From assembly GCF_050920415.1 (NCBI RefSeq), contig NZ_CP169309.1: a stretch of DNA of 64,000 nt. The stretch is one strand, 5' to 3'. Shown in pieces: positions 9,815 to 64,000 of this stretch. The translations under genes were made by a program, and so were the position numbers. Position 1 is the first letter of the stretch, and each line of letters opens with the position of its first letter. The notes beneath the pieces are model-generated. The model did not search any database. It was not told where the DNA came from and worked only from the letters and a program-made list of their open reading frames with translations. This DNA comes from Escherichia coli (GTDB lineage: Bacteria; Pseudomonadota; Gammaproteobacteria; Enterobacterales; Enterobacteriaceae).

Positions 9815-9975
9815 ACGCTGAAACGGGAAAGCCCCTCCCGAGGAAGGGGCCTTAAATAAGGAAAGGGTCATGATGAAGTGGATCATCATCGTGGTGCTCT
9901 TAGTCGTTAGCTACCCAGCTTACTAAGACTACCAGGGCGGGGGAAACCCCGCTCTACCCTCACTCCTGAAAGTAT
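9815..9975 (-). ncRNA. Sib-family antisense sRNA (antitoxin), copy 1; boundaries approximate
   Basis: Inferred from the known Sib/Ibs geometry (sRNA fully overlaps the toxin ORF on the opposite strand); minus-strand hairpin GCCCCUUCC-UCG-GGAGGGGC followed by a U-containing tract near 9820-9845 could be its terminator. Confidence 0.4.
9870..9926 (+). CDS. Ibs-family type I toxin, copy 1 (18 aa: MMKWIIIVVLLVVSYPAY)
   Basis: ATG ATG AAG ... TAC TAA read directly; preceded by aaggaaagg Shine-Dalgarno; not in ORF track (below size cutoff). Resembles E. coli IbsA/IbsB peptides. Confidence 0.6.
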   Translation: MMKWIIIVVLLVVSYPAY

Positions 9976-10142
9976 GCCTTCACAATCAGATTGTCAATCC
10001 GCAGGCTTTGTAGTCTGCGATCCTGCCAGCAAATATTCTTTGCGAGACGTTACGCAATAATCACAGATGAAACTATTTTATCTACGCGTTAGCGATAGAC
10101 TGCATTCAGGGCAAAAGGAGGTAGGCCGCCGATTTCAGCGGG

Positions 10143-10303
10143 ACGCTGAAACGGGAAAGCCCCTCCCGAGGAAGGGGCCTTAAATAAGGAAAGGGTCATG
10201 ATGAAGATACTCATCATCGTGGTGCTCTTAGTCATTAGCTTACCGGCTTACTAAGACTACCAGGGCGGGGGAAACCCCGCTCTACCCTCACTCCTGAAAG
10301 TAT
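10143..10303 (-). ncRNA. Sib-family antisense sRNA, copy 2; boundaries approximate
   Basis: By position relative to Ibs copy 2, same repeat unit. Confidence 0.4.
10198..10254 (+). CDS. Ibs-family type I toxin, copy 2 (18 aa: MMKILIIVVLLVISLPAY)
   Basis: Same architecture as copy 1, 328 bp downstream. Confidence 0.6.
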   Translation: MMKILIIVVLLVISLPAY

Positions 10304-10470
10304 GCCTTCACAATCAGATTGTCAATCCGCAGGCTTTGTAGTCTGCGATCCTGCCAGCAAATATTCTTTGCGAGACGTTACGCAATAATCACATGTGAAA
10401 CTATTTTATCTGCAAGTTAGCGATAGACTGCTTGCATGGCGAAAGGAGGTAGGCCGCCGATTTCAGCGGG

Positions 10471-10631
10471 ACGCTGAAACGGGAAAGCCCCTCCCGAGGA
10501 AGGGGCCTTAAATAAGGAAAGGGTCATGATGAAGCTACTCATCATCGTGGTGCTCTTAGTTATTAGCTGGCCAGCTTACTAAGACTACCAGGGCGGGGGA
10601 AACCCCGCTCTACCCTCACTCCTGAAGTTAT
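10471..10631 (-). ncRNA. Sib-family antisense sRNA, copy 3; boundaries approximate
   Basis: By position relative to Ibs copy 3; the 5' flank of this unit is divergent so the sRNA may be altered. Confidence 0.3.
10526..10582 (+). CDS. Ibs-family type I toxin, copy 3 (18 aa: MMKLLIIVVLLVISWPAY)
   Basis: Same architecture; the distal part of this repeat unit diverges after the ORF. Confidence 0.55.
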   Translation: MMKLLIIVVLLVISWPAY

Positions 10632-10799
10632 GTTACTCCACCCTTATTGTCAATCTGTAAGTCCACGTTCTTGCGGGGCGAATAGCAAAACCCTCTGCGC
10701 TTATGGGCCGAATTCTGAAAGTTGCTTTGCCTGCTCTTATTTCATTATTGCAGTCGGTATGATACCGGACCTCAATAATTCTCTAAGAAAGGATTTCTT

Positions 10800-26655: not shown

Positions 26656-26694
26656 CAGTGTATTGGTAGCTAAAAAGCCAGGGGCGGTAGCGTG
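26656..26694 (+). promoter_or_regulatory. JUMPstart element with ops (GGCGGTAGCGTG) in the wza leader; RfaH recruitment site
   Basis: cagtgtattggtagctaaaaagccaggggcggtagcgtg; ops at 26683..26694. Confidence 0.75.
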
Positions 26695-41237: not shown

Positions 41238-41338
41238 TAGTTGAATAATCAACCGGAATAAATCTCCGGTAAATAATGACAAAAACAAAATTGGCCGTTT
41301 CGGTCAGGGCCAACTATTGCCTGAAAAAGGGTAACGAT

Positions 41339-42709
41339 ATGAAAAAATTAACCTGCTTTAAAGCCTATGATATTCGCGGAAAATTAGGCGAAGAACTGAA
41401 TGAAGATATCGCCTGGCGTATTGGGCGTGCCTATGGCGAATTTCTCAAACCGAAAACCATTGTTTTAGGCGGTGATGTCCGTCTCACCAGCGAAACCTTA
41501 AAACTGGCGCTGGCAAAAGGGTTACAGGATGCGGGCGTTGACGTGCTGGATATCGGCATGTCCGGCACCGAAGAGATCTATTTCGCCACGTTCCATCTCG
41601 GCGTGGATGGCGGCATCGAAGTTACCGCCAGCCATAATCCGATGGATTACAACGGCATGAAACTGGTGCGCGAAGGGGCTCGCCCGATCAGCGGTGATAC
41701 TGGACTGCGCGACGTCCAGCGTCTGGCAGAAGCCAACGATTTTCCTCCCGTCGATGAAACCAAACGCGGTCGCTATCAGCAAATCAACCTGCGCGACGCT
41801 TACGTTGATCATCTGTTCGGTTATATCAATGTCAAAAACCTTACGCCGCTCAAGCTGGTGATCAACTCCGGGAACGGCGCGGCGGGTCCGGTGGTGGACG
41901 CCATCGAAGCCCGCTTTAAAGCCCTCGGCGCACCCGTGGAATTGATCAAAGTACACAACACGCCGGACGGCAATTTCCCCAACGGTATTCCTAATCCATT
42001 GCTGCCGGAATGCCGCGACGATACCCGCAATGCGGTCATTAAACACGGCGCGGATATGGGTATTGCTTTTGATGGCGATTTTGACCGCTGTTTCCTGTTT
42101 GACGAAAAAGGACAGTTTATCGAGGGCTACTACATTGTCGGCCTGCTGGCAGAAGCGTTCCTCGAAAAAAATCCCGGCGCGAAGATCATCCACGATCCGC
42201 GTCTTTCCTGGAACACCGTTGATGTAGTGACTGCCGCAGGCGGCACCCCGGTGATGTCAAAAACCGGACACGCCTTTATTAAAGAACGTATGCGCAAGGA
42301 AGACGCCATCTACGGTGGCGAAATGAGCGCCCACCATTACTTCCGTGATTTCGCTTACTGCGACAGCGGCATGATCCCGTGGCTGCTGGTCGCCGAACTG
42401 GTGTGCATGAAAGGGAAAACGCTGGGCGAACTGGTGCGCGACCGCATGGCGGCATTCCCGGCAAGCGGTGAGATCAACAGCAAACTGGCGCAACCCGTTG
42501 AGGCGATTAATCGCGTCGAACAGCATTTTAGCCGCGAGGCGCTGGCGGTGGATCGCACCGATGGCATCAGCATGACCTTTGCCGACTGGCGCTTTAATCT
42601 GCGCTCCTCCAACACCGAACCGGTGGTGCGCCTGAATGTGGAATCGCGCGGTGATGTGCCGCTGATGGAAGCGCGAACGCGAACTCTGCTGACGTTGCTG
42701 AACGAGTAA
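41339..42709 (+). CDS. cpsG: Phosphomannomutase (ManB/CpsG)
   Basis: ORF track frame starts at 41276; the likely start is ATG at 41339 ([14 protein letters not shown]...), 456 aa; active-site TASHNP. Confidence 0.92.
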
Positions 42710-49787: not shown

Positions 49788-50681
49788 ATGACGAATTTAA
49801 AAGCAGTTATTCCTGTAGCGGGTCTTGGGATGCATATGTTGCCTGCCACTAAGGCGATTCCCAAAGAGATGCTACCGATCGTCGACAAGCCAATGATTCA
49901 GTACATTGTTGACGAGATTGTGGCTGCAGGGATCAAAGAAATCCTCCTGGTAACTCACGCGTCCAAGAACGCGGTCGAAAACCACTTCGACACCTCGTAT
50001 GAATTAGAATCTCTCCTTGAGCAGCGCGTGAAGCGTCAACTGCTGGCGGAAGTTCAGTCCATCTGCCCGCCGGGCGTGACCATTATGAACGTGCGTCAGG
50101 GCGAACCTTTAGGTTTAGGCCACTCCATTTTATGTGCACGACCCGCCATTGGTGACAATCCATTTGTCGTGGTACTGCCAGACGTTGTGATCGACGACGC
50201 GAGTGCCGATCCGCTGCGTTACAACCTTGCTGCCATGATTGCGCGCTTCAATGAAACAGGCCGTAGCCAGGTGCTGGCAAAACGTATGCCGGGTGACCTC
50301 TCTGAATACTCGGTCATCCAGACCAAAGAACCGCTGGATCGCGAAGGTAAAGTCAGCCGCATTGTTGAATTCATCGAAAAACCGGATCAGCCGCAAACAC
50401 TGGACTCAGACATCATGGCCGTTGGTCGCTATGTGCTTTCTGCCGATATTTGGCCGGAACTTGAACGCACTCAGCCTGGTGCATGGGGACGTATTCAACT
50501 GACTGATGCCATCGCTGAACTGGCGAAAAAACAGTCCGTTGATGCCATGCTGATGACAGGTGACAGCTACGACTGCGGTAAAAAAATGGGTTATATGCAG
50601 GCATTTGTGAAGTATGGACTACGCAACCTCAAAGAAGGGGCGAAGTTCCGTAAAGGGATTGAGAAGCTGTTAAGCGAATAA
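49788..50681 (+). CDS. galF: UTP-glucose-1-phosphate uridylyltransferase paralog GalF
   Basis: ORF track frame starts at 49776; the likely start is ATG at 49788 ([30 protein letters not shown]), 297 aa. Confidence 0.92.
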
Positions 50682-50939
50682 TGAAAATCTGACCGGATGT
50701 AACGGTTGATAAGAAAATTATAACGGCAGTGAAGATTCGTGGCGAAAGTAATTTGTTGCGAATATTCCTGCCGTTGTTTTATATAAACAATCAGAATAAC
50801 AACGAGTTAGCAATAGGATTTTAGTCAAAGTTTTCCAGGATTTTCCTTGTTTCCAGAGCGGATTGGTAAGACAATTAGCGTTTGAATTTTTCGGGTTTAG
50901 CGCGAGTGGGTAACGCTCGTCACATCGTAGGCATGCATG

Positions 50940-50978
50940 CAGTACTCTGGTAGCTGTAAAGCCAGGGGCGGTAGCGTG
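50940..50978 (+). promoter_or_regulatory. JUMPstart element with ops (GGCGGTAGCGTG) upstream of the O-antigen operon
   Basis: cagtactctggtagctgtaaagccaggggcggtagcgtg; ops at 50967..50978; ~75 bp upstream of rmlB. Confidence 0.75.
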
Positions 50979-62244: not shown

Positions 62245-63381
62245 ATGGAACTTAAAAAATTGATGGAACATATTTCTATTATCCCCGATTACAGACAAGC
62301 CTGGAAAGTGGAACATAAATTATCGGATATTCTACTGTTGACTATTTGTGCCGTCATTTCTGGTGCAGAAGGCTGGGAAGATATAGAGGATTTTGGAGAA
62401 ACACATCTCGATTTTTTGAAGCAATATGGTGATTTTGAAAATGGTATTCCTGTTCACGATACCATTGCCAGAGTTGTATCCTGTATCAGTCCTGCAAAAT
62501 TTCACGAGTGCTTTATTAACTGGATGCGAGATTGCCATACTTCAGATGATAAAGACGTCATCGCAATTGATGGAAAAACACTCCGGCATTCTTATGACAA
62601 GAGTCGCCGTAAGGGAGCGATTCATGTCATTAGTGCGTTCTCAACAATGCACAGTCTGGTCATCGGACAGATCAAGACGGATGAGAAATCCAATGAGATT
62701 ACAGCCATCCCTGAACTTCTTAACATGTTGGATATTAAAGGGAAAATTATCACAACTGATGCGATGGGTTGCCAGAAAGATATTGCAGAGAAGATACAAA
62801 AACAGGGAGGTGATTATTTATTCGCTGTAAAAGGAAATCAGCGTCGGCTTAATAAAGCCTTTGAAGAAAAATTCCCACTGAAAGAATTAAATAATCCAGA
62901 GCATGACAGTTATGCAATTAGTGAAAAGAGTCACGGCAGAGAAGATATCCGTCTTCATATTGTTTGCGATGACCCTGATGAACTTATTGATTTCACGTTT
63001 GAATGGAAAGGACTGAAAAAATTATGCGTGGCAGTCTCCTTTCGCTCAATAATAGCAGAGCAAAAGAAAGAGCCCGAAATGATGGTCAGATATTATATCA
63101 GTTCTGCTGATTTAACCGCTGAGAAGTTTGCGACAGCGATTTGAAATCACTGGCACGTGGAGAATAAGCTGCACTGGCGTCTGGACGTGGTAATGAATGA
63201 AGACGATTGTAAAATAAGAAGAGGAAATGCAGCAGAATTATTTTCTGGGATACGGCACATTGCTATTAATATTTTGACGAATGATAAGGTATTCAAGACA
63301 GGATTAAGACGTAAGATGCGAAAAGCAGCCATGGACAGAAACTATCTCGCGTCAGTCCTTGCGGGGAGCGGGCTTTACTAG
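62245..63381 (+). pseudogene. ISAs1-family (H-repeat-associated) transposase gene interrupted by a single in-frame TGA at 63142..63144
   Basis: ORF track shows 62245..63144 and 63157..63381 in the same frame. Read through the stop they give ~378 codons, typical of H-repeat/ISAs1 transposases (...[29 protein letters not shown]...). Confidence 0.8.
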
Positions 63382-63453: not shown

Positions 63454-64000
63454 ATGAACTTTAAGAATATAATTAGAATAATACTACCTTTTTTTATTTT
63501 CTTGAGTATTTTACTTTACTCAGGAAGGGCGGATAGTGTTTTGTTATTTACTATCGAATACACACTTGCAAGTATGGCAATCTTTCTGATAAAAAGAAAG
63601 TTTATAAGCAATATCTTGTGGGGGATTTATCTCTCAATTTTAGGTGTACAGGCAGCATCGCTATTTAGTTCAGGACAATATTTGATGCCTCTTGCCTTGT
63701 CGAATGCTGCAGAAGTTGAATCGCTAGGCATTGGCGAGGTAATCAAGGTTTTTTCTATTTTTATTTTATTTGTTATAGTTTCATTCGTTACGATGCCTTC
63801 TGGTGCTCTAGTCGGCCGTATTAAATATTATAAATTTAATTTTTTCTGTATAGTATTATTGCTTGTGTGTTCTTTCATAAGCACGGGACCGGTATATGCT
63901 TTTTATGAAACAGCAAAATTGTACTATTTACAGCAAACCTTTAAGCCTAGTGAGAAGATCGGTGATGCCGGGAAATCTTTTTTAAAAACAAGTGTTTTTA
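63454..64000 (+). CDS. 3'-truncated ORF encoding a polytopic membrane protein of unknown function
   Basis: ATG at 63454, open to the window end (182 codons, no stop), so absent from the ORF track. MNFKNIIRIILPFFIFLSILLYSG... with >=4 hydrophobic helices; AT-rich. Confidence 0.55.
   Translation, partial: MNFKNIIRIILPFFIFLSILLYSGRADSVLLFTIEYTLASMAIFLIKRKFISNILWGIYLSILGVQAASLFSSGQYLMPLALSNAAEVESLGIGEVIKVFSIFILFVIVSFVTMPSGALVGRIKYYKFNFFCIVLLLVCSFISTGPVYAFYETAKLYYLQQTFKPSEKIGDAGKSFLKTSVF

Follow-up and report, generated by a model that had tools for sequence, protein, structure and literature searches.

The spacer that follows galF in Escherichia coli encodes a long RNA hairpin, and we put the probability that this hairpin is a factor-independent (intrinsic) transcription terminator on the galF-sense strand at roughly three in four. 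Gene-end signals of this kind are ordinary, but this one is widely conserved and unusually long, its stem having about three times the usual length, a length that is kept across genera. The hairpin marks the boundary between the transcription of galF and the colanic-acid genes and that of the O-antigen operon. Its place between two RfaH/ops operons makes it a natural test case for long stems versus antitermination in Gram-negative bacteria. A literature search found no paper describing a galF terminator. An earlier reading of this DNA (the sequence-only reading) had suggested a possible terminator-like structure after galF; this suggestion is supported by the fold, by a 3′ end mapped in E. coli K-12 and by the conservation of the hairpin in 64 of 81 galF loci.

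The hairpin and its surroundings

The window, i.e. the whole stretch of 64,000 nucleotides that was analysed, is a segment of the E. coli chromosome in which the open reading frames show the colanic-acid genes (wza start 26873 to wcaM end 49613), galF (49788-50681, stop codon taa at 50679-50681, named after the matching E. coli gene in RefSeq), a galF/rmlB spacer of 371 nt and the O-antigen genes, the first of which is rmlB (from 51053). All of these lie on the + strand. Rfam model RF01707 identifies a JUMPstart/ops element on the + strand ahead of wza at 26656-26694 (57.3 bits) and the O-antigen JUMPstart at 50940-50978 (60 bits, E 3e-13), the latter with its ops, GGCGGTAGCGTG, at 50967-50978. 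A block consisting of ttgttt (-35, 50847-50852), a 17-nt spacer and gacaat (-10, 50870-50875) forms invariant columns in an alignment of nine E. coli O-types and is taken, from its sequence, as the probable O-antigen promoter (50847-50875, + strand); the promoter scan made no call at this block. Marolda and Valvano are said to have described in 1998 an O-antigen leader of 173 nt, which agrees with this promoter position. The RefSeq record of MG1655 carries no annotation between galF and rfbB. After the O-antigen glycosyltransferase genes, two ORFs on the + strand (62245-63144 and 63157-63381) read, from their translations alone, as an ISAs1/H-repeat-type transposase split in two, and the true end of the O-antigen operon thus appears to lie outside what this window shows.

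The sequence-only reading had been based on an 8-bp inverted repeat, an internal attcg/cgaat pair and a following gttttat. The two arms of the repeat, aacggcag (50722-50729) and ctgccgtt (50768-50775), are exact reverse complements 38 nt apart, attcg (50735-50739) and cgaat (50759-50763) are both present, and gttttat is found 3′ of the repeat at 50776-50782. The repeat by itself is marginal evidence, as a perfect 8-bp inverted repeat with a gap of 3-60 nt occurs in 117 of 2000 dinucleotide shuffles of 50682-50790. RNA folding, which had been proposed as a check, gave a very stable structure: the + strand RNA forms a 25-bp hairpin at 50720-50777, closed by a loop of 5 nt (-29.9 kcal/mol, z -5.8), a stability reached by no shuffle out of 200. 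The long loop for which the earlier call had been considered weak is absent, since the interior is almost fully paired.

From its base, the stem comprises 10 bp, a bulged U (50730), 3 bp, a G/A mismatch (50734/50764) and 12 bp, and is capped by the loop AGUAA (50747-50751). The 5′ arm spans 50720-50746, with the conserved base AACGGCAG at 50722-50729, and the 3′ arm spans 50752-50777, with CTGCCGTT at 50768-50775. The reverse strand reaches only -18.7 kcal/mol. The K-12 hairpin has the same fold (-33.6 kcal/mol, z -9.0). Helices obtained by top-level parsing of the global minimum-free-energy structure were over-extended through the A/U flanks, and this parsing was replaced by a search with a span of 62 nt.

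The hairpin is encoded on the galF strand, its first position being 39 nt past the stop codon. An A-rich tract, aagaaaattataa (50711-50723, + strand), lies upstream of the G+C-rich stem base, and A-rich flanks recur in other genera. Directly 3′ of the last G-C pair follows UUGUUUUAU, in which six of the first eight residues are U, interrupted by a G; counted from this pair (50724/50773), the U-rich tail UUGUUUUAUAU spans 50774-50784 on the + strand. Pairing is possible between the last four bases of the A tract (50720-50723) and the start of the tail. The G-C base, the U tract, the A tract, the sense orientation and the place after the stop codon together give the anatomy of an intrinsic terminator. 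A simple terminator scan made no call on the long hairpin because of its bulge, its mismatch and its great length, and this is not counted as evidence against a terminator. A long-span terminator finder applied to the whole window returned 109 hits on one strand and 130 on the other; coding DNA rich in G+C triggers it unspecifically, and it was set aside as a comparator.

The distance from the end of the hairpin is ~70 nt to the promoter-like block and 163 nt to the O-antigen JUMPstart, both downstream, which bears out the further suggestion that the hairpin separates galF from the O-antigen unit; it thus lies between two co-directional JUMPstart/ops operons, those of colanic acid and O-antigen. 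As RNA polymerase leaves galF, the nascent RNA would fold into the 25-bp hairpin, which would act on transcripts from the galF promoter and on read-through from the colanic-acid genes. Such read-through is expected to reach the hairpin because the terminator scan found no terminator-like site in the wcaM-galF interval, and the hairpin may also end it. The G+C-rich base (CGGCAG/CUGCCG) abutting the U-rich tract would then cause release of the transcript ahead of the O-antigen promoter, and transcription of galF and the colanic-acid genes would thereby be held apart from the RfaH/ops-controlled O-antigen operon. The analysis directly shows the fold, its covarying conservation, its bias towards the RNA sense strand, its position and a 3′ end within it in vivo (see below); termination of the polymerase at the hairpin, its efficiency and the nuclease behind the 3′ end observed in K-12 are what we infer from these data.

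The JUMPstart RNA shares the intergenic region and the strand of the hairpin, but is a separate element further downstream. It was rejected as an identity for the hairpin, as the window matches RF01707 only at the two places given above. The hairpin contains no ops sequence, and a permissive Rfam scan gave no match above noise, only sub-threshold microRNA-precursor models; these matches arise because it is a generic long hairpin, and indicate no real family. An optional short hairpin of 8 bp is found just after the galF stop (50687-50710, + strand, dG -7.3, p 0.035 versus shuffles) and is significant in only 14 of 63 species. At its place, Salmonella, some Citrobacter and a few other genera have a hairpin of unrelated sequence. 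Near the end of the window, a hairpin at 63688-63748 is not significant (z -1.2).

Conservation in Enterobacteriaceae and variation within E. coli

Conservation was assessed in 80 galF loci of Enterobacteriaceae, one per species, which with the window make 81. The criteria were alignment-free: a single hairpin closed by G-C, of <=62 nt and with dG <= -15, followed at once by at least five U in eight residues. A hairpin with such a U tract is present in 64 of the 81 loci, 17-49 nt after the galF stop, and in 5 of 405 dinucleotide-shuffled controls. The 64 hairpins have medians of 21 bp, 52 nt and -25.6 kcal/mol, their stems range from 15 to 27 bp, and 63 of the 64 sequences are distinct. Most genera outside Escherichia have 4-8 consecutive U right behind the G-C base, at the start of the tail, and an A tract on the upstream side of the stem. 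Conservation of both the hairpin and the U tract argues for use as a terminator.

The CGGCAG/CUGCCG base of the stem is conserved, with compensatory changes. In a MAFFT alignment of 41 sequences, 96.3% of the cells in the ten basal pairs are paired and two-sided changes occur in seven of the ten, a result matched by none of 500 shuffles. In the upper stem the sequence turns over while the pairing stays. On the MAFFT alignment, upper-stem covariation (80.8% of cells paired overall) exceeds the shuffle and slide controls; the register is imperfect and only partly in phase, and upper-stem conservation therefore rests on the alignment-free result. The sense fold is more stable than the antisense fold in 56 of the 64 loci (median difference 5.6 kcal/mol, p 1e-10, 163 G-U pairs), with a slight bias in that the intervals were optimized on the sense strand. 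This strand bias points to selection on the galF-sense RNA and not on the DNA.

The hairpin and U tract are found in 60 of 67 loci with an upstream wcaM versus 3 of 13 without, an association confounded by phylogeny. Most of the loci without wcaM come from Klebsiella and Raoultella, in which galF is the first gene of the capsule locus. Where wcaM does not precede galF (Klebsiella, Raoultella and relatives), the hairpins found downstream are without a U tract, as in K. pneumoniae, with GCGGCAAGG and, further on, CCUGCCGC, after which comes gcaaaacg. In most genera ~285-300 nt separate the galF stop from ops (range +244 to +316), and this steady distance indicates a layout of hairpin, promoter block and JUMPstart of conserved length.

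Of 5426 complete E. coli genomes, 4192 carry the galF-rmlB spacer, generally in a single copy. A dispersed repeat palindrome (REP/BIME and similar) was considered as an identity for the hairpin and rejected, the number of places per genome in these 4192 genomes having a median of 1 and a highest value of 2. Nine O-antigen types were aligned and folded. K-12, BL21, O125 and others retain the hairpin with differing sequences: between the window and K-12, the stem substitutions are U-G to C-G and G-U to A-U, and BL21 has a different apex with the same architecture and a better U tract. In O157 only a 9-bp base is left, and in strain N51 other hairpins stand in its place. Homology between O-types ends at or inside the hairpin, at 50733 in O157, at 50705 in N51 and at 50681, the galF stop, in strain 1-62. 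These breaks place the hairpin where the O-antigen cluster has its left recombination junction, a position relevant to the mapping of serotype switches. In contig SFGN01000205.1, labelled as a Lachnospiraceae metagenome-assembled genome, galF and wcaM are 98% identical to those of E. coli and the 3′ arm of the hairpin is missing (gcgaattttgttttatat); judging from this identity, the contig has probably been mis-binned.

The 3′ end in K-12 and comparison with known hairpins

Mapping of 3′ ends had also been proposed as a check on the structure, and K-12 MG1655 has a strong Term-seq end within the hairpin. Adams et al. (2021; Supplementary file 1 of PMC7815308) place this end at 2113346 on the minus strand and class it as 'orphan'; it recurs in each of their three growth conditions, the read counts for two of these being 82,720 and 47,630. 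The MG1655 record (galF 2113434-2114327, rfbB 2111976-2113061) and the listed rfbB leader ends were used to verify the coordinate convention. The end is the U that closes CGAAUCUUCCU, immediately before GCCGUUGUUU (CUUCCU followed by GCCGUU), 88 nt past the galF stop and equivalent to 50769 in the window. It is located within the 3′ arm instead of the U tract; the upper helix stops 2 nt before it, and another 8 nt remain to the end of the stem. Two further K-12 Term-seq ends lie on the minus strand in the rfbB leader, at 2113139 and 2113181 (~50976 and ~50933 in the window), one at G10 of ops and the other 120 nt upstream of rfbB. The end at G10 adjoins the known RfaH-recruiting pause site.

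As the galF end falls in the 3′ arm and outside the U tract, the mature 3′ end of galF is likely to be made by processing: after release, the RNA would be cut or trimmed to the stable end two nucleotides past the upper helix. Such an end is consistent with this order of events and is no proof of release at the U tract. An exonuclease able to melt the G+C-rich lower stem is not expected to stall at the A+U-rich upper stem, which makes an endonucleolytic cut more plausible, and the in-stem end thus suggests endonucleolytic maturation of a terminator hairpin. RNase III as the maker of this end is a guess from analogy. RNase III-processed 3′ hairpins (phage lambda sib, T7 R1.1-type) share with the galF hairpin a double-stranded stem of at least 20 bp located 3′ of a coding region, and the 25 bp found here provide the roughly two helical turns of double-stranded RNA expected of an RNase III substrate. 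The K-12 end lies exactly 2 nt beyond the G50731-C50767 pair, which is the geometry of a staggered cut with a 2-nt 3′ overhang. A G-C pair is among the two enclosed by the predicted cuts, a property that Altuvia et al. (2018; PMC6212723) describe for RNase III sites in vivo. No end for the partner cut, expected after 50729/50730, appears in the Term-seq table. The supplements of Gordon et al. (2017), the TERMITe supplements and the text of Stead (2011) make no mention of galF.

Canonical E. coli intrinsic terminators share with the galF hairpin the G-C-closed stem-loop, the 3′ U-rich tract, the 5′ A-rich tract and the location on the coding strand shortly after a stop codon. They differ in that the galF stem has 25 bp (median 21 across species), that its U tract is interrupted by a G in Escherichia and that the 3′ end lies within the stem. 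The average stem of an E. coli terminator is 7-8 bp (as cited in PMC10325885); the usual range of ~5-14 bp, which is typical and not strictly defining, is exceeded by the galF hairpin, and its loop of 5 nt is within the usual 3-8 nt. [quoted passage not shown] With 25 bp the galF hairpin exceeds the TerR-type stem length of ~14 bp. Both have an unusually long stem at the end of a long unit with a processive antitermination signal, in the window the JUMPstart/ops at 26656-26694; they differ in host and in antitermination system (conAn RNA and protein versus RfaH here). An RfaH ChIP signal has been reported at wza-wcaM and at the O-antigen locus in strain CFT073 (PMC9765446).

The TerR likeness leads to a tentative and doubtful proposal: that the stem is kept at ~21-25 bp throughout Enterobacteriaceae because it must stop RfaH-loaded polymerase coming from the colanic-acid ops, so that the hairpin would serve as a TerR-like insulator between two RfaH operons, after which an RNase III cut would set the 3′ end of the galF mRNA. 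That a long stem might resist RfaH antitermination is speculative, being drawn from this analogy. Neither of two other K-12 RfaH operon ends that were checked has a comparable stem: waaU/waaL carries a 12-bp hairpin, and nothing significant folds in the wbbL-gnd spacer (z +0.4). With n = 2, no general pattern of long stems at RfaH operon ends emerges.

Alternative readings

Several observations stand against a terminator, namely the K-12 3′ end in the 3′ arm, the G-interrupted U tract of Escherichia, the weak Rho region near galF, a stem about three times as long as is usual in E. coli and the truncated or replaced hairpins of O157 and N51. The first three of these would be accommodated by an RNA processing or stability element, past which polymerase reads until Rho or later signals terminate transcription, nucleases then cutting or trimming back to the hairpin and the galF mRNA being protected. 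We consider this unlikely. Processed ends would be expected to look like the K-12 end, which falls within the stem shortly (2 nt) after the upper helix, and a weak bicyclomycin-sensitive (Rho) region has been reported near galF (Rho score 1.74; PMC7815308); this score is low, however, and was computed over 800-nt windows that take in the O-antigen leader. Coverage upstream and downstream is similar (283 versus 261 reads), in a comparison confounded by the O-antigen promoter. The protective stem-loops of Rho-dependent transcripts (Dar & Sorek, 2018, PMC6061677) likewise have a stable 3′ end a few nucleotides past the helix and a weak bicyclomycin effect nearby, but lack adjacent U and A tracts, whereas the galF hairpin has both, conserved across genera. 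The run of 4-8 U after the G-C base and the upstream A tract in most other genera would be needless for a mere block to exonucleases.

The remaining alternatives are far less probable. The abundance of the Term-seq end and the presence of a long hairpin preceded by an A-rich tract would suit the terminator end of a small regulatory RNA from the galF 3′ UTR, bound by Hfq or ProQ, a reading that is compatible with the hairpin as a terminator and does not exclude it. We nevertheless regard such an RNA as very unlikely, given that the hairpin matches no Rfam family, that a literature search found no link of galF to Hfq, ProQ or RIL-seq and that no internal 5′ end is known. A DNA-level palindrome, acting as a protein-binding site, a cruciform or a recombination junction for exchange of the O-antigen cluster, would account for the homology breaks between O-types at or inside the hairpin (O157, N51 and strain 1-62), yet the pairing uses many G-U pairs, the sense fold is the stronger in 56 of 64 loci, the upper stem conserves pairing without conserving sequence and the U tail is one-sided; this makes it highly improbable. 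There is scarcely any likelihood that the region serves as an antisense promoter or in upstream control of the O-antigen promoter. The promoter scan did find a 10-of-12 match on the minus strand inside the hairpin and pointing into galF (TCGCCA-17-TATAAT, 50745..50717), but four promoter-like sites were found versus 2.5 expected by chance and the -10 is lost outside Escherichia, where aauaauaa or augauaa is found; as for upstream control, the hairpin ends ~70 nt upstream of the -35. In K-12 the -35 of the antisense promoter-like site reads TTGCTG.

Two RNA features elsewhere in the window were also identified with Rfam. An algC RNA motif (RF02929, 78 bits) at 41285-41334 on the + strand overlaps the start of the colanic-acid ORF 41276-42709. 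Three tandem Sib RNA genes (RF00113, 138-140 bits each) lie on the minus strand at 9855-9997, 10183-10325 and 10511-10653; Sib RNAs are the antitoxin RNAs of Ibs/Sib type I toxin-antitoxin loci.
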